Positions 3,921 to 33,737 of a stretch of DNA of 34,179 nt are shown here, in pieces. The notes under the pieces were generated by a model, which was not told where the DNA came from, did no database searches, and worked only from the letters and a program-made list of their open reading frames with translations. Within the stretch, counting starts at the first letter, position 1, and each line of letters begins with the position of its first letter. Origin of the DNA: Planctomycetota bacterium (GTDB lineage: Bacteria; Planctomycetota; UBA1135; GCA-002686595). The stretch lies in contig JADHNZ010000034.1 in the NCBI GenBank assembly GCA_016779225.1, positions 1 to 34,179 of the forward strand, given 5' to 3'. A program made the translations under genes and the position numbers.

Positions 3921-4754
3921 TCAGGGCGCGGCGTCCGGATCGTCCTCCTCGGGCCTGCGCATCGGGGAGAGCATGGCGCGGATGGAGTCGGGCGCGCGGA
4001 AGTACTGAGCAGGCCTCCCGGGCGCGACCTCTGATTCGTCCAACCGCATGCTGAGCATCTCCTCCTCGGCGCAGGGCTCGAGCCAGCCCGGGACCTTGCG
4101 CACCTTGCGCTGGAAGTTGCCGGGCTCGAGACGAACTCCCCACACGGCCTCGTAGACGCGGCGCAGGTCGCTGATCCGGAACGGCCCCGGCTCGAACGCC
4201 GAGGCGAGGGTCGTGTCCTCGAGGCGCTGGCGCAGGGCCTCGAGGGCGTCCTCGAGAATCTGCCGGTGATCGAAGGCCAGCTCGAGCTGCCCGTCGAGGA
4301 TCTCGTCCACGCCGATCAGGTCCGCGAAGGCCGCATCCGAGCCGGCCTGAGGGGTGGGAAGCTCGGGGATCACGGCCCACCAGGCCACGGTGACCACGCG
4401 CATGCGCGGGTCGCGGTCGGGGTCCCCATAGGCACCCAGCTGCTCGAGGTGGCGCGGCCCGCTCTCGATTCCGGTCTCCTCGGCCAGCTCGCGGCGAGCC
4501 GCCTCCTCCAGGCCCTCCCGTGGGAGCACGAAGCCGCCGGGGAGAGCCCAGGCCCGCTCGTGGGGCGGCGTGCCGCGCTGCACGAGGAGCACATGCAGGC
4601 GCCCGCCTTCGAGGGTGAACACCACCACATCGACCGTGACCGCGAACGCGGGGAAGGCCGAGGGGTCGTAGGCGGCGTCGGGCGATGCGCCGGCCCCCTC
4701 ACCCCCAGCACTGCTGGGGGTGCCGCTGGAGGGCCTTCGGCGGGCAGAAGCCAT
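3921..4754 (-). CDS. NUDIX hydrolase fused to a C-terminal NrtR-type winged-helix domain (Nudix-related transcriptional regulator-like)
   Basis: The NUDIX box is intact (GGFVLPREGLEEAARRELAEETGI = G-x5-E-x7-REUxEExGU). The C-terminal part has NrtR-like motifs (RRVYEAVWG, NFQRKV, GRPAQYFRA). Confidence 0.65.
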   Translation of the reverse strand: MASARRRPSSGTPSSAGGEGAGASPDAAYDPSAFPAFAVTVDVVVFTLEGGRLHVLLVQRGTPPHERAWALPGGFVLPREGLEEAARRELAEETGIESGPRHLEQLGAYGDPDRDPRMRVVTVAWWAVIPELPTPQAGSDAAFADLIGVDEILDGQLELAFDHRQILEDALEALRQRLEDTTLASAFEPGPFRISDLRRVYEAVWGVRLEPGNFQRKVRKVPGWLEPCAEEEMLSMRLDESEVAPGRPAQYFRAPDSIRAMLSPMRRPEEDDPDAAP

Positions 4755-4768
4755 GCCCGAAGACTAGC

Positions 4769-4804
4769 TTCTTATCGACTTGACACGAACCCCCGGGGCC
4801 ATTA
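4769..4804 (+). promoter_or_regulatory. Candidate sigma70-like promoter (TTGACA, 17 nt spacer, TATTGT) in the divergent intergenic region
   Basis: TTGACA lies at 4769-4774. It is followed by a 17-nt spacer and then TATTGT, which matches TATAAT at 4 of 6 positions. It points toward the ARH-vWA gene. Confidence 0.2.
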
Positions 4805-5190
4805 TTGTCCCCCATACAAAAAGCGCCAGGGGCCGCGTTCGGACGCTGCTCCTCCCGCGCTGGAACCTCCGCGAGACGCACCCCGCTCGCCTTCGCACCC
4901 CTTGCGGCGACCCAGCTGGCTCCCCGTCAGCCGCTCGCCCCTCCACACCGCCCCCCCTCGCTCCGCGGGGGGCTGCTGGCCCCCGGCCAGTCCTCGAGCG
5001 CGCCGCGTCGCGGCGCTGCTCTCCCCCCCAGGCCCCGCCCTGGAGGCCTCCACCCCTCCCTGGACCCCGCGCTCCCATCGGGCACGGCCAGGGCCCGCAC
5101 CCCGGACCTCAACGCTCCGCGGCGCAGCGCGGACACCTCCCCCATGGGAGGCGCCCCAACCCCACGAAGACACTCCAAGACTCCCAGACG

Positions 5191-6981
5191 AACTTGACGA
5201 ATCCCGACCTCCCCCCCTCCTCCTCCGACCTCCACGACGCCGACCGGGAGCTTGCCCGGCGCGGCCTCTTCCCGACCTCCGGCGAGCTGCCCCCCGAGGC
5301 CACGGCGCGCCTTGCCGCGGGTCCTGCCCCCGGCCCCGAACGCGTCGAGGGCGTCCTCCTCGGCGCGGCCCTCGGCTCTGCGCTGGGACGCCAGGTGACG
5401 GGCATGCGCCCTGAGGGCATCCAGAGGCGCTTCGGCTGGCTGGCCGAGCTTGAGGTGCCCCGCCGCATGCGGGCCTGCCCCCAGACGGATGACAGCCACA
5501 CGCTGAGGCTCACCCTCAAGGCCTGCATGCAGAAGGAGGCCCCGGCCGCCGAGGCCTTCGCTACGGAGCTGATCCAGCACCGCGATGCCCTGGCTCACCT
5601 GGGACGCGCCTCCAGCGAGGCCATGCGACGCCTCGCGGAGGGCCGCCGCTGGTGGCGGGCCGGCACTCCCTCCGCAGGCAACGGCGCGGCCCTGCGCGCC
5701 GCTGCGATCGGCCTGGCGTTCGGCGACGATCTCGAGGCTCTGCGCCGCGAGGCCGCGCGCAACGCCGTGGTCACCCACGCCGACCGCCTGGCCGTGGCGG
5801 CCTCGGCCGTGGTCGCCCATGCCGTGGCGCTCCTCGCTCGAACGCCCGAGGGCTGCCTGGTGCCTGAGGCCTTCCTGGAGCACCTCATCGCCGGACTGGG
5901 CGACCTTGGTGACGCGTACGGAAAGGACCGGCGCCCCGAGGCCCAGGGGAGCAGGATCCTCCTGGCCGAGCGCCTGCGCACCGTCGGCACGCTGCTCGGG
6001 CAGAGTCCCAAGGAGGCCTTCGGCATCACCCAGAACGGAGCCTATGTGCTCGAGACCCTGCCAGCAGCCCTGTGGTGCTTCCTGGAGCACCCCGAGGATC
6101 CCGAGCTGGCCATCCTGACGGCGGTGAACGGCGGGTTCGATGCGGACAGCGTCGCCAGCCTGACCGGCGCGTTCGCCGGGGCCTATCGAGGAGCCTCCGG
6201 CCTGCCGAGTCGCTGGGCCGAGCGCCTCGCCGGAGCACGGGAGTTCAAGCGGCTGGCCCGCAGGCTCGCGACGGGGACCCACGACACGAGCCAGGGCGCA
6301 GGCGCCGCGGATCGGGTGCATGTCTCGGTCCTGCTGGACCGCAGCGGGTCGATGGGGAGCATCCAGGAGGACACCCTCGGCGGCTTCAACGCGTTCGTCG
6401 CGAAGCAGCGGGCGCTCCCCGGGGACTGCCGGCTGACGCTGGTCCAGTTCGACACTGGGGACCCCCAGGAGGTCACGCTCGACGCGGCTCCGATCGGCTC
6501 CGTTCAGGACCTGGACGAGGCGAGCTACGAGCCTCGTGGAGGCACGCCGCTGCTCGACGCCCTCGGGACGCTGCTCGAGCGTCTCGACCTCCGCGAGGAG
6601 GCCGACCCGGACGAGCAGCAGCTCGTGGTGGTCATCACCGATGGTCACGAGAACGCGAGCTGCAGCTACTCGCGGGCTCAGGTGCTGGGGATGGTCGAGG
6701 AGCGCAAGGCCTCCGGGTGGGCCTTCGTCTTCCTCGGCGCGAACATCGACGCCTTCGGGGAGGGACAGTCTCTCGGACTGGGCCGGGGTCAGGTGGGCGC
6801 GTGGCGCCACACCCGTCGCGGCGTGAGGGACTCCTTCGAGCAGGTCGAGGAGGCCACGGCCCTCTACCGCGCGACGGGCCGTGCGGAGCGCGGCGAGCTG
6901 GCCTGCATGCTCATGGAGGAGGTGCGCACCCGCCGCTCCACGCGCCGTCCCCGCGCAGGCGGAAGCAGCCAAGAGGCCTGA
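5191..6981 (+). CDS. ADP-ribosylglycohydrolase (DraG/ARH family) fused to a C-terminal von Willebrand factor A domain
   Basis: ARH motifs are present: GVLLGAALGSALG near the N-terminus and NGGFDADSVASLTGAFAGAYRG near the end of the domain. The vWA domain has a MIDAS motif, DRSGSMGS, plus VQFDTG...GGTPLLDAL...VVVITDGHEN. The listed ORF starts at the ATG at 4780. The 4780-5190 stretch has many codons ending in A/T, unlike the rest of the gene, and the in-frame TTG at 5191 is the only plausible start before the conserved ARH N-terminus. Confidence 0.65.
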   Translation, partial: NLTNPDLPPSSSDLHDADRELARRGLFPTSGELPPEATARLAAGPAPGPERVEGVLLGAALGSALGRQVTGMRPEGIQRRFGWLAELEVPRRMRACPQTDDSHTLRLTLKACMQKEAPAAEAFATELIQHRDALAHLGRASSEAMRRLAEGRRWWRAGTPSAGNGAALRAAAIGLAFGDDLEALRREAARNAVVTHADRLAVAASAVVAHAVALLARTPEGCLVPEAFLEHLIAGLGDLGDAYGKDRRPEAQGSRILLAERLRTVGTLLGQSPKEAFGITQNGAYVLETLPAALWCFLEHPEDPELAILTAVNGGFDADSVASLTGAFAGAYRGASGLPSRWAERLAGAREFKRLARRLATGTHDTSQGAGAADRVHVSVLLDRSGSMGSIQEDTLGGFNAFVAKQRALPGDCRLTLVQFDTGDPQEVTLDAAPIGSVQDLDEASYEPRGGTPLLDALGTLLERLDLREEADPDEQQLVVVITDGHENASCSYSRAQVLGMVEERKASGWAFVFLGANIDAFGEGQSLGLGRGQVGAWRHTRRGVRDSFEQVEEATALYRATGRAERGELACMLMEEVRTRRSTRRPRAGGSSQEA

Positions 6982-7015
6982 CCCCCGGGGCCATCGCGCC
7001 CCCCAAGCAACACCA

Positions 7016-7073
7016 GGCCGACCGCTTGCGGTTGGCCTCAAAAAGGCGGAGGGCCGACCGCTTGCGGTTGGCC
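7016..7073. repeat. Two copies of a 22-nt imperfect palindrome, GGCCGACCGCTTGCGGTTGGCC (7016-7037 and 7052-7073)
   Basis: The direct duplication is read directly from the sequence. Each copy folds as a hairpin (GGCCGACCGC/GCGGTTGGCC). It shares a GGCCGACC core with the hairpin at 7082-7115. Confidence 0.7.
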
Positions 7074-7081
7074 CCAGACAA

Positions 7082-7115
7082 ACGGAGGGCCGACCCCAAG
7101 GGGTCGGCCCTCCGT
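7082..7115 (-). terminator. Strong GC hairpin (about 16 bp stem: ACGGAGGGCCGACCCC aa GGGGTCGGCCCTCCGT) just downstream of the tRNA 3' end; probable terminator
   Basis: A perfect inverted repeat is read from the sequence. On the minus strand it is followed by TCCGTTTGTC. It is positioned a few nt after the tRNA CCA end. Confidence 0.4.
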
Positions 7116-7121
7116 GTGGAT

Positions 7122-7198
7122 TGGTAGCGGAGGCGGGACTCGAACCCGCGACCTCAGGGTTATGAATCCTGTGCTCTAACCAGCTGAGCTACCCCGCC
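7122..7198 (-). tRNA. tRNA-Met (CAT anticodon), 77 nt with encoded CCA; elongator-type, but tRNA-Ile2 (lysidine) cannot be excluded
   Basis: The reverse complement reads GGCGGGGTAGCTCAGCTGGTTAGAGCACAGGATTCATAACCCTGAGGTCGCGGGTTCGAGTCCCGCCTCCGCTACCA. The D arm is GCTC/GAGC, the anticodon loop is TTCATAA, and the T arm is GCGGG-TTCGAGT-CCCGC. The acceptor stem is 7 bp with two G-U pairs. Confidence 0.9.
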
Positions 7199-7305
7199 AT
7201 CGAGGGCGGAGAAGGTACGCCGGGGGGGGCCGCTGGTCAAGGAGACCCGCTCGTCCCCCCCGCCGCAGGACCCACGCGGCGAGGTCTCCGCACTCTGGAC
7301 GCCGC

Positions 7306-7899
7306 TCAGGCGCCCCAGGTCCCCGCGAGGACCTGCTCCCGGATCACAGCCGGATCGTCCCCCGCGCAGAGCTGCCCCCGGACCGAGTGGTAGCCCATGG
7401 CCACCGTCTCGGCGCGGCCAGTGTCCGCACAGAAGATGCGGCAGGTGTCGATCGGGTTCGAGTAGAGGTGCAGCGACACGGCCCGGCCGCCTCGCGGGCG
7501 GATCAGGTGGAACGCGATGCCGTCGTCGATGAAGGCGACCTGTCCTGCCTGGAAGGGCTGCACGCGCCCCTGCTCGATGCCACCCGCGGCCGGAGTGCGG
7601 TAGTGGACCTCCTCCAGCTCGCCCTGCAGGACCCCCATCCAGCAGCGCTGATCGGCGTGGTCGTGGATGGGGCTCTCCTGGCCCTCCTCCCAGCACAGCA
7701 GCAGCAGCTCGTAGGAGCCACACCGCGCCACCAGGTTGCGCGTGTAGCGCTCCTGACTGAAGTGGGTCCAGGAGCGCCAGTCCTCATGGTCCGCCTGGTA
7801 CCGGGAGAGCAGCTTCGGGACGCCCGGACCGCGGGGGTCACGGTCGAACTCGGCCTCGAGGGCGCGACAGAGCTGGTCGATGGGGAGCGGAGAGGCCAT
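7306..7899 (-). CDS. Cysteine dioxygenase type I (cupin)
   Basis: The protein carries CDO signature segments (YTRNLVARCGSYELLLLCWEEGQESPIHDHADQRCWMGVLQGEL; FHLIRP). Confidence 0.8.
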   Translation of the reverse strand: MASPLPIDQLCRALEAEFDRDPRGPGVPKLLSRYQADHEDWRSWTHFSQERYTRNLVARCGSYELLLLCWEEGQESPIHDHADQRCWMGVLQGELEEVHYRTPAAGGIEQGRVQPFQAGQVAFIDDGIAFHLIRPRGGRAVSLHLYSNPIDTCRIFCADTGRAETVAMGYHSVRGQLCAGDDPAVIREQVLAGTWGA

Positions 7900-7908
7900 C
7901 TCCCGAGC

Positions 7909-8310
7909 CTACCCGAGGGACCCGGCTTCCTCATCCCCCAGGGTGCGGATGCCCCCCCGAGAGACGGCGTAGAGCAGGCACGCGGGGTTCGCAGGGCCCG
8001 CAGGGGCGCCCGGATCCCCCAGGGCCACGGGCGCATGGCGGGTCCCCGGCTCATAGCGCAGATACTCGCCGGCACGATGCTCGCCCAGGTGGTCCCGATA
8101 GCCGCCCGCAAGGATGAGGACCTCCTCCGGGCCCAGGTGCTCGTGGGCGGGGTAGCCGCAGCCCGGCTCCATGCGGATGAGGACGGCCCCTCCGGCCCGC
8201 TCACCCCGGCCCTCGCTTGCCAGGAGGCACCACTGCACCCCGGGGGTCTTGGTGTCCCGCCAGGCCACGCCAGCACCGTCCACATCCAGCCTGAGCCCGG
8301 TCGCCGCCAT
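7909..8310 (-). CDS. Cupin-domain protein (ChrR C-terminal-like cupin)
   Basis: It has a cupin metal-site-like segment (GYPAHEHLGPEEVLILAGG...YLRYEPGTRHAP). It lies 9 nt upstream of CDO on the same strand, so the two are probably an operon. Confidence 0.55.
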   Translation of the reverse strand: MAATGLRLDVDGAGVAWRDTKTPGVQWCLLASEGRGERAGGAVLIRMEPGCGYPAHEHLGPEEVLILAGGYRDHLGEHRAGEYLRYEPGTRHAPVALGDPGAPAGPANPACLLYAVSRGGIRTLGDEEAGSLG

Positions 8311-8472
8311 GTCCCGACCTTAGCGCGAACGGGGCGGCTTCCCAGGAGTGGGAAGCCTCAGAAAGAACGGGCATGACCGGTCAATCAGAGCTTGCCCACT
8401 CGTAACTCTGTCCCTTGGGCATCGCACCCGGCGCCGCAGGCGTTCCCGGGAGCCTGGCGAAGTCCCACTCTC

Positions 8473-8500
8473 TCCCCGGGGGCCGCTGCAGGGGCAGCGG
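8473..8500 (-). terminator. 12-bp-stem GC hairpin (GGGGGCCGCTGC aggg GCAGCGGCCCCC); possible terminator downstream of the ppx operon
   Basis: A perfect inverted repeat is read from the sequence. There is no T-tract, which is common in GC-rich genomes. Confidence 0.3.
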
Positions 8501-8537
8501 CCCCCACCCTCTCCGGGCCGGCCGGTCCGCTGCAGGG

Positions 8538-8650
8538 CCCAGCCAGCGGCTTGAGGGAGGCCCAGCCAGCGGCTCGAGGGAGACTCAGCCAGCGGCTTGA
8601 GGGAGACTCAGCCAGCGGCTTGAGGGAGTTCCAGCCAACGGCTTGAGCCG
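8538..8650. repeat. Tandem direct repeat, 23-bp unit (AGCCAGCGGCTTGAGGGAGACTC), about 5 copies
   Basis: Copies begin at about 8541, 8564, 8587, 8610 and 8633, with point variants. The period is not a multiple of 3. The array is intergenic between the ppx stop and the cupin start. Confidence 0.85.
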
Positions 8651-8653
8651 GCT

Positions 8654-9571
8654 TCAGCGCCTCTCGCCGCGCAGCGCATCCAGCAGAGCCGCATGGCGCA
8701 GGCCACGGGTCGAGACCGCAGCCTCCCGGACGCCAATCGACCCCAAGGCCTCGGCCAGGCACACGAGCCCGGACGGGAGGGTGCCCGCTCGCTCGGCCTC
8801 GATGGGGAAGCGTGCAGCCCGCTCAGCCTCGTCGAGTGCAGCCAGCTCCCTCGCCCACTGCAACAGCTGTCCGGCCTCGACGCGCGCCGCCTCGGCAGCC
8901 TCCACGCGAAATGCTGCTGCGCCTCGCTGGGTCAGGCTGCCCGCGTTCACAGCGGTGCCCCCCACCAGGACCACGGCGCCGTGCGGAGGGACCGGCGGCA
9001 CCTCGGCAAGTGCCTGCTGAATGCGTGCACGAGCCTCGGCCCGCTGGGCCTCCAGGTCCCACCCCTTGAGGCGCGCCTGCTCCGCCAGCCAGCTTGCTCC
9101 CACCGGGGCGGAGCAGGCCCAGGCGCCGCCGTCGGTCACGAGCTCGGTGCTCCCGCCGCCCGTGTCGATCACGAGGCCAGAGGGGCTGCCGCCACAGGCC
9201 CCTGCGTGGGCGAGGCGCGCCTCCTCCTCACCGGAGACCACGCGCAGGGGCACTCCCAGGCGCCGTGCCAGCTCCGCCGCCACCTGCTCGCCGTTCTTCG
9301 CGCGGCGGAACACCGCCGTCCCGACGACCTCGACCAGCGGGCAGCCTGCGGCCTCAGCCAGGCCACGCAGCTCGACGAGAGCGGCGGCGGCCCGCTCGAG
9401 CGGTGCCGTCCCGAGCGCGCCGGTCGCGGCCAGCCCCTCACCGAGGCGCGGAAGCCGCGCGTCCTGCACCAGCACCTCGAGCTCTCCGGTTGCGTCGAGG
9501 CGCCCCCCGAGCAGCACCGCGGACTGGGTGCCGAGATCGATCACGGCGCGCGCTTGCGAAGGGCCGCTCAT
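8654..9571 (-). CDS. ppx: Ppx/GppA family phosphatase (exopolyphosphatase / guanosine pentaphosphate phosphohydrolase)
   Basis: Ppx/GppA motifs are present (AVIDLGTQSAVLL, VVGTAVFRRAKNG, LVIDTGGGSTEL). The start is placed at the internal ATG at 9569-9571 (MSGPSQARAVIDLG). That ATG overlaps the upstream gene's stop as ATGA. The listed ORF start at 9676 would add a low-complexity N-terminus. Confidence 0.75.
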   Translation of the reverse strand: MSGPSQARAVIDLGTQSAVLLGGRLDATGELEVLVQDARLPRLGEGLAATGALGTAPLERAAAALVELRGLAEAAGCPLVEVVGTAVFRRAKNGEQVAAELARRLGVPLRVVSGEEEARLAHAGACGGSPSGLVIDTGGGSTELVTDGGAWACSAPVGASWLAEQARLKGWDLEAQRAEARARIQQALAEVPPVPPHGAVVLVGGTAVNAGSLTQRGAAAFRVEAAEAARVEAGQLLQWARELAALDEAERAARFPIEAERAGTLPSGLVCLAEALGSIGVREAAVSTRGLRHAALLDALRGERR

Positions 9572-12009
9572 GATCCCTGCGGCTCCAGGCGCACGACGCG
9601 CTCCTGACGCCGCCCCGTGGGCACCAGACGCTCCTGGTGCCGCTTGCAACCCGGCGCCTCCACGACGAGCCGCCACGCGCAGCGGGGCACCTCCCCTTGG
9701 AATGCGCCGCGCTCCTCACGGGACCGATCGAGCCGCACGCCCTGGCCCCAGGTCGAGCCGCCCTCCTCCGGCGGAACGAGCAGCAGGCGCGCGCTGGCAC
9801 GCACCCCTTCGGGAACGCCCTCCACGCGCACGATGAGGGTCGTGGTGCGCCGCAGCTCGAAGCGCCCCAGGTCCAGCGCACCGTTGGAGGGCAGGTCCAC
9901 GGGCTCGAGCCGCACGAGCTCGACCCCGTCCCCGCGCAGGGCCAGCTGCAGGTTGCCGGGAACGACCTCGCGCACCTCGAAGAAGCTGCCGTCGGTGTGG
10001 AGCACGCCGCCCTGCGCACCGAGGACCTCGAGCCCGGGGACGGGGGCCCCCGAGCCGAGCAGCACGACCTGACCCCGCAGGGTGCCGGGCTCAGGAGGAA
10101 GCTCACGCGCCGCGCGCAGGATCACTGGCCCTGCGCCTGGCGCAACCTCCGCCTCCTCGACGGAGCGCCAGCCGCGCTCGCGCACCGCGACCGTCAGGGG
10201 CTCGAGCTCGCCTCCCCGGGAGCCTGGGTGCGCGAAGGAGAAGCGTCCGTTCGCGTCCGTCGAGGCGCCGCCCCGAGGCCCTCTGCGCCGGTCGTCCGCA
10301 CCCGGGCGCTCGGCGTGGACATAGACGCCGGGCACCGCGGCACCGAAGGGGTCCAGCACCAGCCCCTCGATGCGCGGCTCCGGCTCGAGGACCAGCACCA
10401 CCGCGTCCTCCTCCGTCTCGAGGCGCGCGAAGTTGCTGTCGAAGCCGTGCAGCTCGGCCCAGACCCACTGGTGCACGCGCTCGAGCGAGCGGAGCGCGGC
10501 GGTCCCGTCGGGGCCGGTCCTCGCGGCCTCCCCCTCGAGGCGCGTGCGCTGGCCCCGACCCGTGCGAGGCAGACGGCCACCCAGCCGCACGAGGGCTCCC
10601 TCGAGGGGCAGCCCCTCGGGGTCGGTCACGGTCACGCGCAGAGCCCGCTCGGCCGCGACGCGCAGCTCGAGGTCATCGCGCCTCTGCCCCTCACCGACCT
10701 GAGTGGTCTCGGTGGCAACGATCGCACCGTCCAAGCGCACGAGGACGGCGAGCGGCCGGTTCGCGGCCACCGTCCCGAGGTCGAACCGCCCCCCGCCGTC
10801 GGTAGTCGCGCGCTGCACGAGGCCCGGCCAGCCGTCACGCTCCTCGCGCGCATCGAGCCCCGCGCCCTCGAAGTGATCGGCGGACACGACGGCGACCTCC
10901 AGGCCGGGCACCCCGGCGCCCTCCGCGTCGAGGACCACGCCGCCGAGACGCGCCGGGGGCGCGACGATGATGAGCTGCTCGTCTTCCGCACCGGGCTCGA
11001 GGGTCGCCTCCAGCTGATAGGGCTGCCCCCAGGGCGTCGCCACCTCGACGCGGTAGGCCCCGCGGGCGAGGCCGGCGACCACCACCCGGCCGTCGGGGCC
11101 CGTCACGCCGCGGCGGGCGGCCAGGGCCTCGAGGCTGCGGCGTACGGAGTCGTGGGAGGGAATGACCGTGACCTCGACGCCCTCCACCGGCTCGCGCGTC
11201 CGCTTGAGCACCGCGCGTCCGCGCCAGGCCGCACGCTCGGGGAGCAGCACCTCGGCCAGCGCCTCGCCCCCGGGATCCAGGCGCAGCTCGGGCACGACCA
11301 CGAACGGCGCATCCTCCGACAGCAGCGCGAGGGACCAGACTCCGGGCTCGAGCACGAGCTCCAGGGGCTCGAGCGGACCGTCCCCCAGCGGCTCGAGCCG
11401 GTCAGGCTCACCCGAGGCGCGCTCGGAGCGTCCCTCCCACAGGGCAAGGGCAGCACCCTGAACAGGCTGGGCACTGCCGGGGCCCAGGAACACCACGCGC
11501 AGGGTGGCGGTGGGCTCGAGGACCAGCTGCAGGGGCTGCTCGAGCAGGCCCGGCTCGGGGTAGTGCCCGGTGGCGAAGCCCTCGGCCGCGGCGGCCAGGG
11601 TGTAGGTTCCGCCCGCGGGGACCTCGATTCGGAACGCGCCGGCCGCACCCGCCGTCGTCCCCGCGAGCCCCAGCTCCTCAGGCAGGACCAGGATGCGCGC
11701 GCCGGGGAGGCCGGTCCTCAGGCGGCCGTCGAGCACGACGCCCTCCAGCGTGCGGAGCTCGCCCGCGTACGGCCGGGGGGGGACGCCGGCGAGCGCAGGG
11801 TCCACGGCGTCGAGGCGTGCGCCCGTGGCCGGCCCCTCCGAATCGGGTTCGTCCAGGGAGCGACCCAGCTCGCTCGCCGGATGGGCATCGCCCTCGGCGG
11901 CCGCGTCCAGCCCGAGTGGCGCGCGGCTCCCAACCGCGGGGTCCTCGCCCAGCACGAGGAGCCCGGCGAGAGCCAGGCAGGAGGCAAGGGCGAACCAGAG
12001 GCGGCGCAT
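9568..12009 (-). CDS. Large secreted protein built from repeated carboxypeptidase-regulatory-like (prealbumin-fold) beta-sandwich domains
   Basis: It has a signal peptide (MRRLWFALASCLALAGLLVLG). It contains repeated G-x-V-x-D...G...P-x-A-x-V units (GVVLDGRLRTGLPGARILV; GGVVLDAEGAGVPGLEVAVV; GLVLDPFGAAVPGVYVHAE...DANGRFSF; GQVVLLGSGAPVPGLEVLG). Its stop overlaps the ppx start. Confidence 0.65.
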   Translation of the reverse strand: MRRLWFALASCLALAGLLVLGEDPAVGSRAPLGLDAAAEGDAHPASELGRSLDEPDSEGPATGARLDAVDPALAGVPPRPYAGELRTLEGVVLDGRLRTGLPGARILVLPEELGLAGTTAGAAGAFRIEVPAGGTYTLAAAAEGFATGHYPEPGLLEQPLQLVLEPTATLRVVFLGPGSAQPVQGAALALWEGRSERASGEPDRLEPLGDGPLEPLELVLEPGVWSLALLSEDAPFVVVPELRLDPGGEALAEVLLPERAAWRGRAVLKRTREPVEGVEVTVIPSHDSVRRSLEALAARRGVTGPDGRVVVAGLARGAYRVEVATPWGQPYQLEATLEPGAEDEQLIIVAPPARLGGVVLDAEGAGVPGLEVAVVSADHFEGAGLDAREERDGWPGLVQRATTDGGGRFDLGTVAANRPLAVLVRLDGAIVATETTQVGEGQRRDDLELRVAAERALRVTVTDPEGLPLEGALVRLGGRLPRTGRGQRTRLEGEAARTGPDGTAALRSLERVHQWVWAELHGFDSNFARLETEEDAVVLVLEPEPRIEGLVLDPFGAAVPGVYVHAERPGADDRRRGPRGGASTDANGRFSFAHPGSRGGELEPLTVAVRERGWRSVEEAEVAPGAGPVILRAARELPPEPGTLRGQVVLLGSGAPVPGLEVLGAQGGVLHTDGSFFEVREVVPGNLQLALRGDGVELVRLEPVDLPSNGALDLGRFELRRTTTLIVRVEGVPEGVRASARLLLVPPEEGGSTWGQGVRLDRSREERGAFQGEVPRCAWRLVVEAPGCKRHQERLVPTGRRQERVVRLEPQGS

Positions 12010-12054: not shown

Positions 12055-12915
12055 CTACGCGCTCCCCGCCTCGCCGCGTGCAAACGCTCCGTAGCAGGTG
12101 CCCTCGAGGTTGAACACCTGCACGCGGCGACCATCCCGATCCAGCAGCACCACGCGGGTGTGCCGGTCGTCCTCACCCGGGACGCACACGAGGCCGGTCG
12201 GATACGCCACGCTGCCCTCGTCCTCACCGAACGCCGCCAGGCAGCCCTCGATGGCGCCCTCGCGGTCGAGGGCCAGGACGGCCCCGCGCTCGCCCTCCCA
12301 GGCCACGACAGGGCGGCCCCCCGGGGCGAGGGCGAAGGCGGAGGGGCGGGCGTCCCCCAGCTCGGGCAGGGGCACCGCGTAGTGGAAGTCCCCGCCGCGG
12401 AAGACCTGCAGGCGGCTGCGCCCGGCCTCGAGCACCCAGACCTCGTCCTCGACGAGCTCCACGCCGACCACATCCTCGAAGCGGCCCTCCGGGTCACCGA
12501 GGGGGCGCAGCGAGAGGGAGCGCCCGGTCGCCGGGCTGAGCAGCTGGACCGCGTGGCGGCGGCGTCCCGCCGAGGCCACCGCGACGACGAGCTCGTCATC
12601 GGTGCCGCGCACGGCAACTCCGCTGGGCCGGCCAAGGCTTCCGCGGGCGTCGGCCTGTCCGCCCGGCACCTGCGCAACCTGCTGGCCGAAGACGCTGAAG
12701 GTCCGCAGGCAGCGTCCCTCCCCGTCCGCGATCCAGAGGCGCCGGTCGGCGTCGACCGCAAGGCCACTCACGCTGGAGCGCCCGCGATCCTCGTCGCGGA
12801 ACGCGAGGGAGTCGTCCAGCGGGCGGCCGTCCAGGTCGAACACCATCACGCGCGCGGTCCGCGCGTGGGATCCGACGAACAGCACGCCGCTGCGCTCTGC
12901 GAGAGCTCCACTCAC
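12055..12915 (-). CDS. NHL-repeat / beta-propeller protein
   Basis: It has repeated blades with a hydrophobic-x-V/L-x-D...G...V-x-V motif (LWIADGEGRCLRTFSVFGQQV; GVAVRGTDDELVVAV; VWVLEAGRSRLQVF; VVLLDRDGRRVQVFNLEG). Confidence 0.55.
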   Translation of the reverse strand: MSGALAERSGVLFVGSHARTARVMVFDLDGRPLDDSLAFRDEDRGRSSVSGLAVDADRRLWIADGEGRCLRTFSVFGQQVAQVPGGQADARGSLGRPSGVAVRGTDDELVVAVASAGRRRHAVQLLSPATGRSLSLRPLGDPEGRFEDVVGVELVEDEVWVLEAGRSRLQVFRGGDFHYAVPLPELGDARPSAFALAPGGRPVVAWEGERGAVLALDREGAIEGCLAAFGEDEGSVAYPTGLVCVPGEDDRHTRVVLLDRDGRRVQVFNLEGTCYGAFARGEAGSA

Positions 12916-12925
12916 GCGGTCGAGT

Positions 12926-13810
12926 CTAGGGGGACGGGGGGGGCTCCCCCCCCGGCACCAGATCCAGCAGCACCACCTCCGCCGGCACGCGGCAGCGCAG
13001 CGGCACCCCCACCACGCCGAGCCCGCGGCTCACCACCAGGCGCGTGGGCCCGAGTTGCACGCGCGTCCCGGGGTGGCGCGGGCCCAGGTCCCGCAGCAAG
13101 GGCAGGTCGATCTGCCGCCCGTGCGTGTGACCCGAGAGGATCGCCACACATCCGGGCCGCGCAAGGGCGGGGCCCGCAGAGGGGTTGTGGCAGAGGCAGA
13201 CCTCGACCGCTCCGTCCGGGATGGGTGCGCGGGCCGCCTGGATGTCCACCAGGCGCCCCTCCTCCGGATCCTCGATCCCGCTCAGCCACAGGGGCAGGTC
13301 CCCGAGCCGAGCCGCGTCGTTGCGCAGGAAGGTCCAGCCCTCCGAGGACAGGGCCTGCACGAGGGCCTGCTCGCGACGCCCGCGATAGTCGTGGTTCCCG
13401 AACACCGCATAGGCCCCCAGGGGCGCGGCCCGCGCCAGGCGCGCGAGGGGCTGCCGCAGGGCCACTCCGGCCTCCACCTCGTGTGCGATGAAGTCGCCCG
13501 TCAGGGCCACCGCGTCGACGCCCTCCCCGAGCAGGCGGTCCACCACGGGCTCGAGACTACGCGCATTGAAGAGCCTGCCGGCGTGCAGGTCCGAGAGCTG
13601 GGCGATGCGGACGCGGGAGTGAGAGCCCAGCGCGCAGCCCACCGGCACGACCTCGCGGCGCAGGAGCAGCCGCCGCGCGGAGAGCCAGCGGCGGGCGTAC
13701 CAGGCGCGGCCGCCAAGCAGGGCCGCCGTGCCCTCGACCGCGTCGAACAGGGCGAGCCGCCCCTGCGAGTGGCGGCGGACCGGCTGGCGCACGGGTCGAG
13801 CGGGCGGCAT
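12926..13810 (-). CDS. Calcineurin-like metallophosphoesterase (YkuE-type)
   Basis: Metallophosphoesterase motifs are present (IAQLSDLHAG, VALTGDF, GNHDY, CLCHNP, LSGHTHGRQ). The start is set at the ATG at 13808-13810 (MPPARPV...). The longer listed ORF start at 13942 would read through the 24-bp tandem repeat and produce an artificial GTALRCPA repeat. Confidence 0.75.
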   Translation of the reverse strand: MPPARPVRQPVRRHSQGRLALFDAVEGTAALLGGRAWYARRWLSARRLLLRREVVPVGCALGSHSRVRIAQLSDLHAGRLFNARSLEPVVDRLLGEGVDAVALTGDFIAHEVEAGVALRQPLARLARAAPLGAYAVFGNHDYRGRREQALVQALSSEGWTFLRNDAARLGDLPLWLSGIEDPEEGRLVDIQAARAPIPDGAVEVCLCHNPSAGPALARPGCVAILSGHTHGRQIDLPLLRDLGPRHPGTRVQLGPTRLVVSRGLGVVGVPLRCRVPAEVVLLDLVPGGEPPPSP

Positions 13811-13817
13811 GGCAACA

Positions 13818-13937
13818 GCTTGGCACGGGAGCGCTGTACTTGCTTGGCACCGGAGTGCTGTGCCTGCTGGGCACCGGAGTGCTGTGCCTGCTGGGCACCG
13901 GAGTGCTGTGCCTGCTGGGCACCGGAGTGCTGTGCTC
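13818..13937. repeat. Tandem direct repeat, 24-bp unit (CTGGGCACCGGAGTGCTGTGCCTG), about 5 copies
   Basis: Copies begin at about 13818 (degenerate), 13842, 13866, 13890 and 13914. The array lies immediately upstream of the metallophosphoesterase start and downstream of the anti-sigma stop. Confidence 0.85.
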
Positions 13938-13959
13938 AGCACCCGCCGTGCCCAGAGCC

Positions 13960-14721
13960 TCAGAGCTCGAGGAGGACCTGGTCGCCAGGGGCGAGGGTGC
14001 GCTGCACAGTGGCGCTCTGCACGCGCGGCGCACCCTCGAGGGCCTCTGCGGAGAGGCCTCCGGTGACGAGCGCGATTCGCGCGCGATCCCCGGCCGCAAG
14101 GAGCACGAGGCCCGCGTCCGCGCGCACCCGAGCCGGGCCGCGCACCTCGAGGGTTCCCGCCTCGAGGGTGAGCGAGAGCTCGGGTCCCGCGTGGTGTACG
14201 AGGGACAGGGGATGCTCCCCCTCCGCCCTCGCTGCGCCCCGCTCCAGCACCAGTCGAGCGCCGGTCTCCGCGCGTATGGCGGACTCCTCGGACAGGCGCT
14301 GCTCGGTCCCAGGCTCGACGAGCCCCTGGGAGGTGACCGCCGTGCCGCCCTCGACGAGGAGTCGCGCTCCCGGACGCGTCGTGTCCTCGAGCGCGATGCG
14401 CAGGATGGCGAGGAGCCCAAGGGGCACGAGGATTCGCGCGAGCACGCCCGGACGCAGCCAGGGCCGCGGATCAGCCTTCCCCTGCAGGGCGCGCCGCTGG
14501 CGCACGGCGGTGCGGAGGGCGTCATGCTCCGCGGCCTCCGCGCGCCGCGCGCGAGCGCCGGCGGCCGCTGCGCCCACCGTCGACTCCAGGGCCTCGCGGC
14601 AGGAGGCGCAGGCGCGCAGGTGCTCGCTCAGCCGCTCGCGCTCCCCACCGGACAGCTCGCCGAGGGCACGACGGGCCAGCAGCGGCGCCGCGGCCGCGCA
14701 GTCGAGTTCGGGAGCCGTCAC
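13960..14721 (-). CDS. Putative zinc-finger (zf-HC2) anti-sigma factor with one transmembrane segment and a periplasmic C-terminal domain
   Basis: The N-terminal part has an H-x3-C-x2-C motif (LSEHLRACASC) about 40 aa in. A hydrophobic segment follows (VLARILVPLGLLAILRIAL), and then a roughly 130-aa C-terminal domain. Confidence 0.5.
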   Translation of the reverse strand: MTAPELDCAAAAPLLARRALGELSGGERERLSEHLRACASCREALESTVGAAAAGARARRAEAAEHDALRTAVRQRRALQGKADPRPWLRPGVLARILVPLGLLAILRIALEDTTRPGARLLVEGGTAVTSQGLVEPGTEQRLSEESAIRAETGARLVLERGAARAEGEHPLSLVHHAGPELSLTLEAGTLEVRGPARVRADAGLVLLAAGDRARIALVTGGLSAEALEGAPRVQSATVQRTLAPGDQVLLEL

Positions 14722-21390: not shown

Positions 21391-23502
21391 CTAGCGCGCG
21401 CCCTGGGCCCCGGCCACCGCCACTCCGTCCACCTCGAGCTCGAGCGACCACCGCGCGGCGCCGCTGCGATCGCTCACGAGGAGCGGCTCGTCGTCCTCCG
21501 CCAGGAGCACCTCCTCCGCGAGGGTCGCTCCCGCTGCGTCGGTCCAGCGCAGGCGCCAGGCGCCCGCAGCCTCCTCCCGCACGGCCGAGGGCGCGTCGAA
21601 CGCCGCCAGGTCCAGGCTCCACCCTGCGTCGCTGCGCCGCGGCGTCGCCTGCGGTGGCAGCGGCCACGGCCGCGCGCTCACCTCGAGCGTGCGACCGGCG
21701 AGCGGTCCAACGAGGCGCAGGTCCGCGAGCGTCCCGGCCAGGGACCAGGTGAGCTCGCCGCGGAGGTCGAAGCAGGCAAAGGTTCCCTCGCCCGTCCGCA
21801 CCCAGGCACCCGTCGCACGGCCTGACCAGCCCGCGCCGGTGGTCCACTCCACGCTCGGCGGATCCTCCCCCGGCAGCGACGGCGGAACGGCCACGCGCAG
21901 GTGCGCGGTCCGCGCGGGCACGACCTGGGCCAGGGCGTCGGCAGGAGCCCCGAGCCAACGGGCCGGCAGCAGGTCCTGGCCGGGCTCCGGCCGCAGGAGC
22001 AGCCTCCCCGTGCCGGCGGCTCCGAGGAGGGCGCGGGGCACCAGCAGTCCAAGGCCCTCGCTGCGCCAGCGCACGCCGAGGTCGCCGCAGAGCGCCCGCC
22101 CAAGATCGCCGGGCTGAAGCAGACGCACGCGCGGAGAGAGAGGCCCGCCGAGGTCCGGCCCTCCCTCTGCCAGGCGGCGGCTGAGGAGCAGTGAGGGGTC
22201 CCGCGGAACGAGCAGGCGCTCCGCCGGGTCCTCGACCAGGATCCAGGTCGGCTCGAAGCCCGCCTCCTCAGCGGCGCCCTCGAGGTCTGCGCGCGCGGCG
22301 TCCACCGCGCGACCGGCCTCGCCGAGCGGCACGGCCACGCCGTGCGCCAGCCAGGCGAAGATCGGCACCACCAGCGCCGGCAGCAGACGCCTGCGCAGGT
22401 CAGGCACCGCGGTGACCATGACGCCCAGGCCGGCACACAGCACGACCGAGGCGAGCAGGAGGTTCTCCGCCCCGTCCAGGCTGAAGCTCGCCGCGCGGGT
22501 GTCCGCATCCAGCAGCAGCGCCAGCAGCACGGCAGCCCCCCAGCCGAGGGTCGCCCGGCCCCAGAACCGCGGTGCGGTGCGGCCGGCGATGAAGGCGGGG
22601 TGCAGGAGGAGAGCGAGTGAGAACAGCGCGGCGAGGATCGACAGGGGGCCCAGGCTGTCGAGGGGCGCGGGCATGAGGAGCACGCCGACCTTCTCCGCCG
22701 TCAGCGGGATCGCGAGCAGGTGAGCGGAGACCTCCTGGAAGGTGCGCGCGTCCTCTGGAGCGAGGCGCGCGCGCAGGGCGTACTCCGCGGACACGCACAC
22801 CGCACACAGCAGCGCGGTCAGGAGCGCCGTTCGCGTGCGCTGGCCCGAGCTGCGGAAGCGGCGCCCCGAGGCGGCCTCGAGGATCCCGTAGAGCGGGGGC
22901 AGATAGAGGGCCCAGCGCCCGCAGAGCCCGGCGAGGGTCGCCAGCAGGAAGGCGCGGCCCAGACGGCCCGCGGCCGGGTGGTCGCGATCCTGGCGCGCGC
23001 GCAGGAGCGCCGCCGCGCCGAACAGGCCGAACGCAAGGGCCAGCAGCTCGCCGCGCAGGTGCAGCTGCGGGACCGCCGCCACCGGAAGGGGGTGCACGAG
23101 GAGCAGGACCGCAGCGGCCAGCCCGCCCGCGCGCGCGCTGTCCTCCCCCACCCAGGGCGCCAGCGCCCGACGCACGACGAGGCGCAGGCCCATGGCCACG
23201 ACGAGGAGCACCGCCAGGTTCTCGAGGCGCAGCCAGGTCGCGGCCTGGGGCGTCCAGACCTTCTCGGCAGTCCAGATCGACCGCGAGAGGAAGAGGGACA
23301 GGGCCGCGAGCGGCCGGCCGTCGAGGTGAGGGACGCGGTAGAGCGAGGCCGGCCCCTTGCCGCTGAGGCCCGCCAGCAGCTCGAGGTCGTCGCCGAAGGG
23401 GCCCGCCGTGAGGGCCGGAGCATGGGCCCAGGCCACCAGCAGGCCGAGGGCCACGAGCCACGGCAGGGCGAGGCGGCGGGGAGCGTCCTCCATGGGCGTC
23501 AC
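21391..23502 (-). CDS. Large polytopic membrane protein with a C-terminal extracytoplasmic domain; function unknown, possibly a GT-C-like glycosyltransferase fold
   Basis: About 12 hydrophobic segments span the first ~420 aa. A soluble C-terminal region of about 280 aa follows. A DD/DE-containing first loop (FGDDLEL) resembles GT-C loops. The gene ends 11 nt upstream of queF on the same strand. Confidence 0.55.
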
Positions 23503-32675: not shown

Positions 32676-33737
32676 ATGAAGCTCCTCACCGCCCTCTCCG
32701 TTCTCCCCGTCGTGGCCCTGGGGAGCACCCTGGCCACCGACTACACCGCCGACCGCAGCCTGCGCGTGGAGCGCCGGATCCACACCACCAGCGAGGTGGT
32801 GGACATGGTCATGATCGTCGACGGAGAGGAGATGGAGGGGCGGGGCTTCGGCGGCGGCGCGAGCGAGCGCACGCTCACCATCACCACCCTCGACAAGGTG
32901 CTGGAGCACGAGGAGGGCGCCCCCACCCGCGTCCGCCGCACGCTCGAGACCCTCAGCACCGAAGGCGTCATGAGCATGCGCGGCGAGGAGCGTGACTTCG
33001 AGCGCGCCAGCGACGCCGAGGGCGCAGTGCTCGACCTGAGCCGCGCCGAGAACGGCGACCTCGAGGTCAAGGTCGAGGAGGGCTCCGAGCCCGAGGGCGC
33101 GGACTTCGCGTCCCTCGAGCTGACGCTCGAGCTCGACGCCCTCCTGCCCACCGAAGAGGTGGAGCCCGGCGGGACCTGGGACCTCGAGAGCGAGGCGATC
33201 GTCCGCGGCCTCGGCATGGGGCTCGAGGGCTCGCTCTTCGGCCGTCCCTCCATGGAAGGTGACCGTGGCGGCCGCGGCGAGGGCGGCGGCGGTCGCGGAG
33301 GCCGCGGTGGCTTCGGCGGCGGCCGTGGCGGCTTCAGCCTGGAGACCATGATCGGCCTCGAGTGGAAGGGCGAGGCCAAGCTCGCCGAGGAGACCGAGAC
33401 CGTCGACGAGCTCGAGTGCCTGGTGATCGAGCTCGAGCTCGAGGCCGACGGCGCCCTGCCCGAGCGCGAGTGGGGCGGCGGCCGTGGCGGCCGTGGCGGC
33501 GGCGGCGGAGCCCTGGAGCTGAGCGCCCCGCTCTCCTGGCTGGAGACCACCGTCGAGGTCGAGCTCGAAGGCCGCATGCTCTGGAGCCTGGCGGAGAACC
33601 GCCTCGTGAGCCTCGAGCTCGAGGGCGACTTCACCATGCAGATGGAGCGCACCATGTCCCGCGGCGACCGCGAGATGGAGATGAGCTCCACCACCGAGGG
33701 CGCCGTCGAGTTCAAGGTCTCCGTCGAGGCCGAGTGA
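32676..33737 (+). CDS. Secreted, highly acidic protein with Gly/Arg (RGG-box-like) repeat tracts; function unknown
   Basis: It has a signal peptide (MKLLTALSVLPVVALGSTLA). The body is Glu/Leu-rich and has two GGRGGRGGFGGGRGG-type tracts. Codon usage is strongly GC3. Confidence 0.5.
   Translation: MKLLTALSVLPVVALGSTLATDYTADRSLRVERRIHTTSEVVDMVMIVDGEEMEGRGFGGGASERTLTITTLDKVLEHEEGAPTRVRRTLETLSTEGVMSMRGEERDFERASDAEGAVLDLSRAENGDLEVKVEEGSEPEGADFASLELTLELDALLPTEEVEPGGTWDLESEAIVRGLGMGLEGSLFGRPSMEGDRGGRGEGGGGRGGRGGFGGGRGGFSLETMIGLEWKGEAKLAEETETVDELECLVIELELEADGALPEREWGGGRGGRGGGGGALELSAPLSWLETTVEVELEGRMLWSLAENRLVSLELEGDFTMQMERTMSRGDREMEMSSTTEGAVEFKVSVEAE

Follow-up and report, generated by a model that had tools for sequence, protein, structure and literature searches.

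How bacteria respond when their own proteins are ADP-ribosylated, be it by phage transferases, toxin transferases, or endogenous enzymes, is almost entirely a matter of prediction. The closest described systems are the ARG-centric ADP-ribose systems predicted by Iyer, Burroughs, Anantharaman and Aravind (Viruses 2022;14:1977; PMC9503650, section 3.8). As set out in that section, these systems comprise an ADP-ribosylglycohydrolase (ARG) to which no transferase is coupled, a repressor of the Nudix-HTH or WYL type, frequently phosphatases, peptide-binding chaperones (vWA, SseB, and TY-Chap1-3), ARPP, Macro or NADAR proteins, and nucleases, and vWA proteins are described there as components under NrtR or WYL control. 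ADP-ribose from modified host proteins was proposed to de-repress the operon, the chaperones to bind ADP-ribosylated targets, and the ARG to remove adducts placed by phage transferases; a coupled phosphatase, present in 55% of the published systems, is not obligatory. Our literature searches turned up no experimental follow-up of this prediction. Rodionov et al. (2008, PMC2330246) described NrtR sites as 21-bp palindromes with a GT-N7-AC core, from which ADP-ribose frees NrtR, and a Streptomyces nrtR1-draG operon is known from the same study. Here, we analyze the 34,179-nucleotide contig JADHNZ010000034.1 of a Planctomycetota metagenome-assembled genome (MAG; GCA_016779225.1), the whole of which is called the window below. 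It carries a gene encoding an ADP-ribosylglycohydrolase (ARH) domain fused to a von Willebrand factor type A (vWA) domain, divergent from a gene for an NrtR-family regulator.

Because it combines an ARH-vWA fusion with an NrtR neighbor and a conserved operator, the locus matches the ARG-centric systems, and it is a further, minimal two-gene member of this computationally predicted kind that is already correctly annotated. As in the systems of section 3.8, there is an ARG without a linked ADP-ribosyltransferase (ART) or sirtuin, a Nudix-HTH regulator, and a vWA chaperone domain, here in cis. Unlike what the text of that section describes, the system consists of just two genes, and a single polypeptide holds both ARG and vWA; genes for a phosphatase, ARPP, Macro/NADAR, or a nuclease do not adjoin; the locus is syntenic and slowly evolving; and the catalytic glutamate is missing. 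An Acidimicrobiales relative (GCA_040219515.1, 5104-10140; L089 among the related loci, which are numbered with L) has NrtR divergent from ARH-vWA together with a Hist_deacetyl family gene, a TY-Chap3 gene (PF22552), and a calcineurin-like phosphatase gene, the last two of which agree with the published systems; PemK and Rv0078B toxin-antitoxin genes flank this module. The deacetylase-family gene of that locus is not among the components given in section 3.8 of PMC9503650.

That the two genes of the window make up a module of this kind is very probable. The best explanation, to which we lean without being assured of it, is a two-gene ADP-ribose-responsive module consisting of an NrtR repressor and a divergent ARH-vWA eraser. 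The analysis adds to the published prediction a promoter and operator inside a false open reading frame (ORF), a regulatory layout that crosses phyla, a coupling of the two domains in both orders and as split genes, and a degenerate catalytic center. The locus is about the simplest version available, with one regulator, one promoter with a recognizable operator, and one two-domain protein, and it therefore lends itself to testing three parts of the 2022 model, namely, ADP-ribose-dependent de-repression, MIDAS-dependent target capture, and adduct removal (MIDAS being the metal ion-dependent adhesion site of the vWA domain). The features of the module are as follows.

3921 to 4754, minus strand: NrtR-family regulator (Nudix plus NrtR winged helix; NCBI MBL6721498.1), divergent from the ARH-vWA gene
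4772 to 4786, no strand: imperfect upstream NrtR-type box TTAT-N7-ACAC, overlapping the -35 hexamer
4780 to 4808, plus strand: sigma-70-type promoter TTGACA-17-TATTGT (10 of 12 positions), whose -35 hexamer holds the TTG that opens the spurious long ORF
4805 to 4819, no strand: predicted palindromic NrtR-type operator TTGT-N7-ACAA, overlapping the -10 hexamer
4809 to 5193, plus strand: noncoding 5' leader of about 380 nucleotides, if transcription begins at the 4780-4808 promoter
5194 to 6981, plus strand: ARH-vWA coding sequence, 595 amino acids, TTG start, TGA stop at 6979-6981
5194 to 5337, plus strand: family-specific N-terminal extension (amino acids 1 to 48) with the motif D-A-D-x-E-L-x-x-R-G-L-[LF]-P, conserved in the ARH-to-vWA family
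5338 to 6273, plus strand: ARH domain (amino acids 49 to 360; PF03747, E = 2.4e-51)
5377 to 5379, plus strand: Ser62, at the Asp34 position of ARH3 by the HMMER alignment given on the next line
5398 to 5400, plus strand: Thr69 (ACG), where human ARH3 has its catalytic Glu41 (ungapped HMMER alignment, GDCVGSFYE41 / GSALGRQVT69)
6274 to 6309, plus strand: flexible interdomain linker (amino acids 361 to 372), with a predicted local distance difference test score (pLDDT) below 50 for amino acids 363 to 372
6310 to 6873, plus strand: vWA domain (amino acids 373 to 560) with a complete MIDAS, D382, S384, and S386 (6337-6351), T451 (6544-6546), and D483 (6640-6642)
6874 to 6978, plus strand: C-terminal extension (amino acids 561 to 595), with two short helices (563-570 and 573-584) followed by a disordered, Arg-rich end (amino acids 587 to 595, pLDDT below 50)

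The regulator matches NUDIX (PF00293, E = 6.2e-20) and NrtR_WHD (PF21906, E = 7.6e-7, 29.6 bits against a cutoff of 27), and its Nudix box, GGFVLPREGLEEAARRELAEETGI, is intact and fits GX5EX7REUXEEXGU. Its closest solved relatives are BtAraR (5bs6, 2.7e-26) and Shewanella NrtR (3gz5/3gz6, 9e-26), which match over both domains (amino acids 27 to 221). The operator TTGT-N7-ACAA matches once in the window, against an expectation of 0.01, and the promoter that it overlaps is the sole sigma-70-like site between 4500 and 7400, with 0.0 expected by chance. Both hexamers are conserved in L001, L084-85, L086-88, and the Acidimicrobiales locus L089, in which the spacer and flanks diverge, and the operator arms are conserved with a changed spacer in L001, L086, and L089. 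In L086-88, relatives at 67% protein identity, the TGT-N7-ACA core and the hexamers are kept and the remaining intergenic region diverges; their upstream box is TTGT-N7-ACAC, from which the window differs at one core base. L089, from a different phylum, has the matching layout TTGACA-18-TATTGTCGTATCGACAC, and boxes similar to the operator are found in the nrtR-vWA intergenic regions of L020, L027, and L043. The linkage of an ARH-family protein to NrtR with a GT-N7-AC operator is also a feature of the Streptomyces nrtR1-draG-SCO1765 operon (PMC2330246). The NrtR neighbor and the promoter and operator within the false 5' extension were absent from the preliminary description of this DNA.

In the mechanism that we propose, NrtR bound to TTGT-N7-ACAA at the -10 hexamer and to the weaker box at the -35 hexamer would keep the fusion gene off, and probably nrtR too, as the sequence and phylogenetic footprinting indicate. 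By analogy with characterized NrtRs, ADP-ribose or a derivative would bind the Nudix domain and release the repressor. The ARH pocket would bind the ADP-ribose moiety of a modified protein and the MIDAS metal of the vWA domain an acidic residue or peptide of the same protein; the ARH domain would then remove the adduct, and the freed ADP-ribose would feed back on the release of NrtR. The ADP-ribosylation could come from a phage or toxin transferase, as Iyer et al. proposed, or from an endogenous enzyme. The predicted NrtR repression, ADP-ribose release, and two-point recognition rest on conserved sequence features and gene context, and two-point recognition of ADP-ribosylated proteins, suggested by the recurrent coupling in both domain orders and the invariant MIDAS, is reasonably likely. 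Adduct removal is the weakest step, since the equivalents of Glu41 and Asp34 are Thr and Ser in this clade, and we put the chances that this Glu-less protein actually hydrolyzes its substrate at even.

The promoter and operator lie at the 5' end of the longest ORF, which is present as described at 4780 to 6981 on the plus strand; its opening codon at 4780 is TTG rather than the ATG reported in the preliminary description. The suspicion that the first ~135 codons of this ORF are not coding is supported by ~138 codons without coding bias and by frame-breaking indels in a 95%-identical relative (L001-L003). In these first ~138 codons, the GC content at third codon positions (GC3) is 0.73-0.80 and that at second positions (GC2) is up to 0.87, and from ~5230 to the stop codon GC3 is 0.83-0.97 and GC2 is 0.33-0.77; the codon-position GC is flat in 4780-5193 and becomes coding-like only from ~5140-5230. 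Between the window and L001-L003, the region 4780-5193 shows 38 substitutions distributed 11/17/10 over the codon positions, five indel runs (1, 3, 1, 5, and 1 nucleotides), all but one of them frame-breaking, and a TAG in frame in the relative, and the real coding sequence shows substitutions distributed 13/12/85 and one 4-codon indel. Homologs at 50% identity start five residues ahead of the family motif DADxELxxRGLLP, and the 67% relatives start with an ATG immediately before N-D-A-D. The region 4780-5193 is noncoding, as follows from the flat codon-position GC, the frame-breaking indels and TAG, the starts of the homologs, and the identity of the TTG at 4780 with the -35 hexamer. Homologs aligning through 4780-5190 were sought, and none were found save over-called ORFs in close high-GC relatives. 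In a genome of 73% GC, a TTGACA box at -35 can thus mimic a start codon and add 138 spurious codons.

Between the codon at 4780 and the conserved DADxEL motif, the TTG at 5194-5196 is the only canonical start that is in frame. The preliminary description had also settled on a TTG as the sole usable start, placing it at 5191, where the codon (5191-5193) is AAC. Its suggestion that the annotated start was wrong holds for the long ORF, which over-extends, but not for the public annotation, in which NCBI MBL6721499.1 is exactly the 595-amino-acid product from TTG 5194; JGI gene callers chose the same TTG in relatives. Other starts were rejected for the window. The ATG at 5144 is out of frame in the window by a 1-nucleotide indel, and the 67% relatives use another ATG; in L001-3 and L084-85, its counterpart lies in frame 17 codons ahead of the TTG and was chosen by the Logan caller (616 amino acids). 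The GTG at 5395 or the ATG at 5404 would remove the conserved GxxxGxxxG N terminus of the ARH domain, and neither product is found in a public collection. In the window, and there alone, a 17-codon upstream ORF (MGGAPTPRRHSKTPRRT) begins at ATG 5144 and ends in a TGA (5195-5197) that overlaps the TTG start codon at 5194-5196 (TTGA). An additional A in an A-run brings this ATG into frame with the gene in five related assemblies; the state of this run in the window could be a real indel that makes a coupled upstream ORF or a homopolymer assembly error.

The predicted leader is GC-rich and weakly structured (folding z-score, -2.4), and its sequence is not conserved in the 67% relatives. An Rfam search at E <= 1 over 4500-7400 returned no match but the tRNA and none in the leader. 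A riboswitch or structured RNA was rejected on these three points. The leader is about 380 nucleotides long in both Planctomycetota clades (L086, 5790-6240) and about 118 nucleotides in the Acidimicrobiales locus L089. The N-terminal extension that follows it is modeled as two confident helices (amino acids 10 to 22 and 34 to 42), and the first 13 amino acids of the protein are not conserved in the 67% relatives.

The order of an ARH domain followed by a vWA domain, as originally described, is borne out by matches to Pfam PF03747, VWA_2, and VWA. An artifactual fusion was rejected, since dozens of independent assemblies show the same uninterrupted ORF. PF03747 (ADP_ribosyl_GH) matches at 175.6 bits against a cutoff of 26.2 over profile positions 1-287 of 287 (amino acids 191 to 478 in the numbering of the long ORF). 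In the AlphaFold2 model of the protein (pLDDT, 88.4; predicted template modeling score, 0.75), the domain has the all-alpha ARH fold, with Foldseek matches to ARH3, MJ1187, and DraG at E values of 1e-13 to 1e-10 and target template modeling (TM) scores of 0.75-0.85. The best match in both sequence and structure is human ARH3 (ADPRHL2/ADPRS), with a phmmer E value of 3e-19 and a Foldseek match to 9rfe_A at E = 1.5e-13 and TM = 0.77. The two share the all-helical fold, the TDD and DxD[ST] ligands, the S-x-G-N-G ADP-ribose-binding segment, and the TH motif (T194-H195 in the window protein). By alignment, the metal ligands are kept as T98-D99-D100 (T76-D77-D78 in ARH3) and D316-A-D318-S319 (D314-x-D316-T317 in ARH3). 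ARH3, to which the window protein is ~25% identical, has neither its conserved N-terminal extension nor its C-terminal vWA domain, and Glu41 and Asp34 of ARH3 are replaced with Thr and Ser in the window protein. The preliminary description had assumed an intact DraG-like hydrolase, which this alignment contradicts.

The window protein is intermediate, in that it lacks only the Glu41 and Asp34 equivalents of the ARH3 catalytic set. The Glu41 position holds Lys in P0001-3 and in the 95% and 67% relatives (P numbers denote retrieved proteins) and Glu in most Acidimicrobiia, and the Asp34 position is Ser in the window and in these relatives. In human ARH3, D34G and E41A each severely reduce activity (PMC8319183), and the inactive E41A protein still binds Mg2+ and substrate and has served as a crystallographic substrate trap (PMC8319183; PDB 7aks, 7akr, and 7arw). 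These substitutions admit a reading in which the protein is a reader and not an eraser: a dead or very slow ARH domain would bind ADP-ribose, and the protein would act as an adaptor or sensor that captures, sequesters, marks, or hands over modified proteins. We hold this reading only tentatively and think it rather unlikely. The behavior of E41A agrees with it, as does the occurrence of Thr or Lys at the Glu41 position among 95%-identical proteins, which suggests that this position is without catalytic constraint. The ARH domain is under strong purifying selection; the ratio of nonsynonymous to synonymous substitution rates (dN/dS) against L001 is 0.078 for the ARH domain, 0.18 for the vWA domain, and 0.11 for the whole coding sequence, with purifying selection on both domains, so that the Glu-less ARH domain must do something. 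ARH2 (ADPRHL1), a vertebrate paralog within the ARH family suspected to be inactive, likewise has an ARH fold under selection without canonical catalytic residues (PMC7050489); unlike the window protein, it is eukaryotic and without a vWA domain, the two are not specifically related, and the window protein keeps more of the metal site.

To compare active sites, all retrieved proteins were aligned to the ARH profile. In this set, which includes redundant close relatives and in which the alignment is less certain for divergent members, the equivalents of Glu41, Asp77, Asp78, Asp314, and Asp316 are all kept in 13 of 78 ARH-to-vWA proteins versus 45 of 54 ARH-only and 4 of 4 vWA-to-ARH proteins. 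Both C-terminal Asp residues are kept in 16 of the 33 full-length 50%-identity ARH-to-vWA representatives, the TH motif is retained in 77 of 78 ARH-to-vWA sequences, and the MIDAS is present in every homolog aligned over the vWA domain. The catalytic center is thus often degenerate across ARH-to-vWA fusions while the MIDAS is invariant. This point appears new, and it hints concretely, in a way that is cheap to test, that some of the proteins are readers rather than erasers. The reversed vWA-to-ARH proteins (P0035, P0037, P0144, P0156, and that of L019) have a complete ARH catalytic set, and unfused ARH genes adjoining stand-alone vWA genes have the full DETDD...TH...DD[TS] set wherever it is visible. 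In L009, a degenerate fused ARH-vWA gene adjoins a separate ARH gene with a complete catalytic set (9635-11314 and 12497-14188), a pairing that suggests a division of labor between reader and eraser. In L060 (9944-11552 and 11592-13130), the visible N-terminal part of the fused ARH is without the vicinal Asp pair, and the separate neighboring ARH keeps the C-terminal ligands that are visible in its partial sequence. The fused genes of L016, L024, L027, and L060 appear frameshifted in long-read MAGs.

Several points weigh on the other side of the reader reading. The window protein keeps the four metal-binding Asp residues, Thr98, Ser319, and TH, which makes it far less degenerate than the clearly dead members of the family. 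The glutamate is crucial to the activity of ARH3, for which alone the requirement has been established, and other ARH subclasses are mechanistically different (PMC7050489). A search of the window for a second ARH or vWA gene found none, and there is no Macro gene in it, so that nothing there offers itself as the eraser with which a reader would be paired. The wider proposal that ARH-to-vWA fusions, including that of the window, may form an unrecognized class of bacterial ADP-ribosyl-protein readers passing their targets to hydrolases or effectors is accordingly put forward as a possibility of modest weight, on the pattern of conserved and lost residues and on the pairing in L009, with a similar one in L060. 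In such readers, the ARH fold would have lost the catalytic Glu, and in many members all of the metal center, but would retain its ADP-ribose pocket and TH motif and act jointly with the MIDAS of the vWA domain.

The vWA half of the protein is recognized by Pfam marginally above the cutoffs (VWA_2, 27.2 bits versus 27.0; VWA, 23.9 versus 23.8; amino acids 515 to 653 of the long ORF) and has the Rossmann-like vWA fold. The intact DxSxS MIDAS noted in the preliminary description is confirmed: its D-x-S-x-S, T, and D residues are invariant in 21 and in 29 aligned sequences, and loss of the MIDAS was never seen in the aligned homologs. The suggestion made there that the vWA domain recruits a partner or substrate agrees with the function predicted for vWA proteins in section 3.8 of PMC9503650. 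The ~90-amino-acid Arg-rich tail described earlier is mostly the last strand and helix of the vWA domain, which extends to about amino acid 560, and only ~35 amino acids lie beyond; the last 62 amino acids are 21% Arg, yet they include nine acidic residues. A profile of amino acids 531 to 595 matches vWA proteins in 52 related loci, stand-alone ones included, and the C-terminal extension therefore belongs to this vWA subfamily. In comparison with canonical MIDAS vWA domains (integrin alpha I-domains, TFIIH Ssl1/p44, collagen VI, and anthrax toxin receptor), to which it is 9-19% identical, the window domain is cytoplasmic and bacterial and has two extra C-terminal helices and a basic end, which are common to its stand-alone bacterial and phage relatives.

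The nature of this domain also bears on the possibility that the protein is a small-molecule or NAD-salvage enzyme, in which ARH cleaves O-acetyl-ADP-ribose or alpha-NAD+ within an NrtR regulon and the vWA domain serves oligomerization or localization. NrtR regulons are mostly NAD-metabolic (PMC2330246), ARH3 cleaves O-acetyl-ADP-ribose too (PMC7050489), and the vertically inherited housekeeping neighborhood, the low dN/dS, and the adenosine deaminase and Ppx/GppA genes in the window would all suit such an enzyme. However, a vWA domain with a MIDAS serves to bind proteins or peptides; in this family it is conserved more than any other part, and it is coupled variously to ARH, Macro, ARPP-1, and the peptide-binding TY-chaperones, which points to macromolecular substrates. 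In the annotation of the window, no NAD biosynthesis or salvage gene adjoins the module. We consider a salvage role improbable.

The preliminary description called the architecture unusual, and it is indeed rare, but it recurs in four phyla, in reversed order, and as adjacent separate genes. A word-indexed search retrieved 69 homologs, including ~45 full-length fusions, mostly from Acidimicrobiales MAGs at ~50% identity. In an exhaustive profile search of 1.84 billion 50%-identity representatives, the best 150 matches were evaluated, and among these there were ~33 full-length ARH-to-vWA representatives and at least two with the vWA domain first. The fusions occur in Planctomycetota, Actinomycetota (Acidimicrobiia), Gemmatimonadota (Longimicrobiales), and Acidobacteriota (L019, in reversed order); among GTDB species genomes, no representative is closer than 40% identity to the window protein. 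Reversed fusions, with an N-terminal vWA and a C-terminal ARH domain, are found in L019 (9941-11803, Vicinamibacterales) and in P0035, P0037, P0144, and P0156. A stand-alone vWA gene (~220 amino acids) lies near a separate ARH gene in L032, L042, L046, L059, L061, and L079, and in L042, L046, and L059 an nrtR-vWA operon is divergent from the ARH gene. In six Firmicutes loci, the vWA gene is immediately downstream of a Macro-domain gene, and vWA-ARPP-1 fusions were also found. Of 82 related loci, 24 have an adjoining NrtR gene and 22 a fused or nearby ARH, with the two together in 15; NrtR, ARH, or Macro, singly or in combination, is found in 36; sampled neighbors of stand-alone vWA loci without ARH, Nudix, or Macro genes are heterogeneous (SNase, DUF2510, M24 peptidase, and others). 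The vWA subfamily is thus broader than the ADP-ribose systems, since the link holds in 36 of the 82 loci only and the other neighbors are heterogeneous.

Other neighbors of the stand-alone vWA genes recur as well. A protein of ~470 amino acids without a Pfam match adjoins the vWA gene in 11 actinomycete loci (L023, L032-L037, L045, L047, L052, and L061), for example at 7821-9242 on the minus strand in L033, and an ARH gene is also near in L061 and L032. Genes of the staphylococcal nuclease fold lie directly 3' of the vWA gene in two unrelated loci (L015, 11262-12212; L074, 10634-11158) and could be effectors. Stand-alone vWA relatives with 30-40% identity, including the C-terminal extension, are present in ~98-kb Pseudomonas syringae phages and a Xanthomonas jumbo phage, as in LN887844.1 (Pseudomonas phage VCM, 28574-29329), AP018399.1 (Xanthomonas phage XacN1, 298150-298659), and the REC/M5.1/Kremar group. 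A further 224 phage records, mostly of Streptomyces and Microbacterium phages, match some part of the query protein. A phage or plasmid origin of the fusion itself was rejected: tblastn against the phage and plasmid collections gave only matches to the vWA or the ARH part alone, and no record covered >=80% of the query.

In the window, the module is flanked by housekeeping genes, namely, those for type III glutamine synthetase (GSIII), a MORN protein, ferrochelatase, tRNA-Met, cysteine dioxygenase, a cupin, Ppx/GppA, GluRS, and adenosine deaminase, and relatives at 67% protein identity, a TARA Oceans scaffold among them, have exactly this gene order. The GSIII gene lies three genes upstream (76-1644 and partial in the window; 231-2426 in L001; 429-2621 in L086) and is syntenic in all Planctomycetota relatives. 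The GSIII of Rhizobium meliloti is ADP-ribosylated in vivo. The protein might thus be a DraG-type switch that reverses a resident DraT-like ADP-ribosylation of a metabolic enzyme such as GSIII, with the vWA domain docking onto the target. DraG is the paradigm of a target-specific ARH (PMC7050489), and the synteny with GSIII is conserved across the 67%-identity relatives. Identity with DraG was rejected, however, since the TIGR02662 equivalog model scores 67.6 bits against a cutoff of 337.05; unlike DraG and the nrtR1-draG operon, the window locus is without DraT or nitrogenase context and its genes are divergent rather than operonic. No transferase was detected in the window. The fusions of Acidimicrobiia lie in different neighborhoods without GSIII, and the GSIII link is therefore probably plain synteny. 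We regard a DraG-type switch as very improbable.

No ART or sirtuin domain was found by Pfam in the 22 window ORFs scanned, five large ones of which have no Pfam match at all. PADLOC gave no match for the fusion protein and a weak PDC-S07 Nudix match for the regulator, and a known defense system was rejected on this basis. With its housekeeping synteny, no PADLOC match, no phage or plasmid fusion, and no ART or sirtuin, the module behaves here as a resident, vertically inherited one. The hallmarks of conflict systems, rapid evolution and a variable neighborhood, are not seen in this lineage, which has a dN/dS of 0.11 and unchanged synteny at 67% identity; across the family, contexts differ and the ARH domain varies greatly. 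The stable surroundings of housekeeping genes favor a resident stress or repair role over a mobile defense island in this lineage.

The eraser module that we prefer has to be weighed against several of these observations. The published ARG-centric system is itself a prediction only. The residues corresponding to the catalytic Glu41 and the active-site Asp34 of ARH3 are substituted in the window protein, and relatives at 95% and 67% have Lys at the Glu position. The fusion gene has no phosphatase, Macro, or further ARH gene beside it; a calcineurin-like phosphoesterase gene (12926-13942, minus strand), syntenic in L086, lies 6 kb away, with cysteine dioxygenase, cupin, Ppx/GppA, CarboxypepD_reg, and NHL genes in between. 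The low dN/dS, the identical synteny, and the PADLOC result are unlike a fast-evolving defense locus. The promoter was recognized with the sigma-70 consensus, and planctomycete promoters may be different; it also lies ~380 nucleotides 5' of the start codon, and neither Rfam nor folding accounts for so long a leader.

Two further observations concern other parts of the window. The five large coding-like ORFs without a Pfam match lie within 21391-23502 (minus strand), 25927-30448 (plus strand), and 32676-33737 (plus strand); three of them are adjacent and codirectional, with ~500 amino acids each (25927-27453, 27450-28964, and 28964-30448), upstream of a LytTR-type two-component pair. Between the stop codon of the ARH-vWA gene and the tRNA-Met gene (7122-7198, minus strand), there is a 36-nucleotide tandem repeat (7016-7116, 2.2 copies, 88% match), which is probably also what the weak 'mir-341' Rfam match at 7040-7121 represents. 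Each 36-nucleotide unit forms a GGCCGACCGC/GCGGTTGGCC hairpin, and a 14-bp perfect hairpin at 7084-7113 reads as a terminator for the minus-strand tRNA-Met gene.

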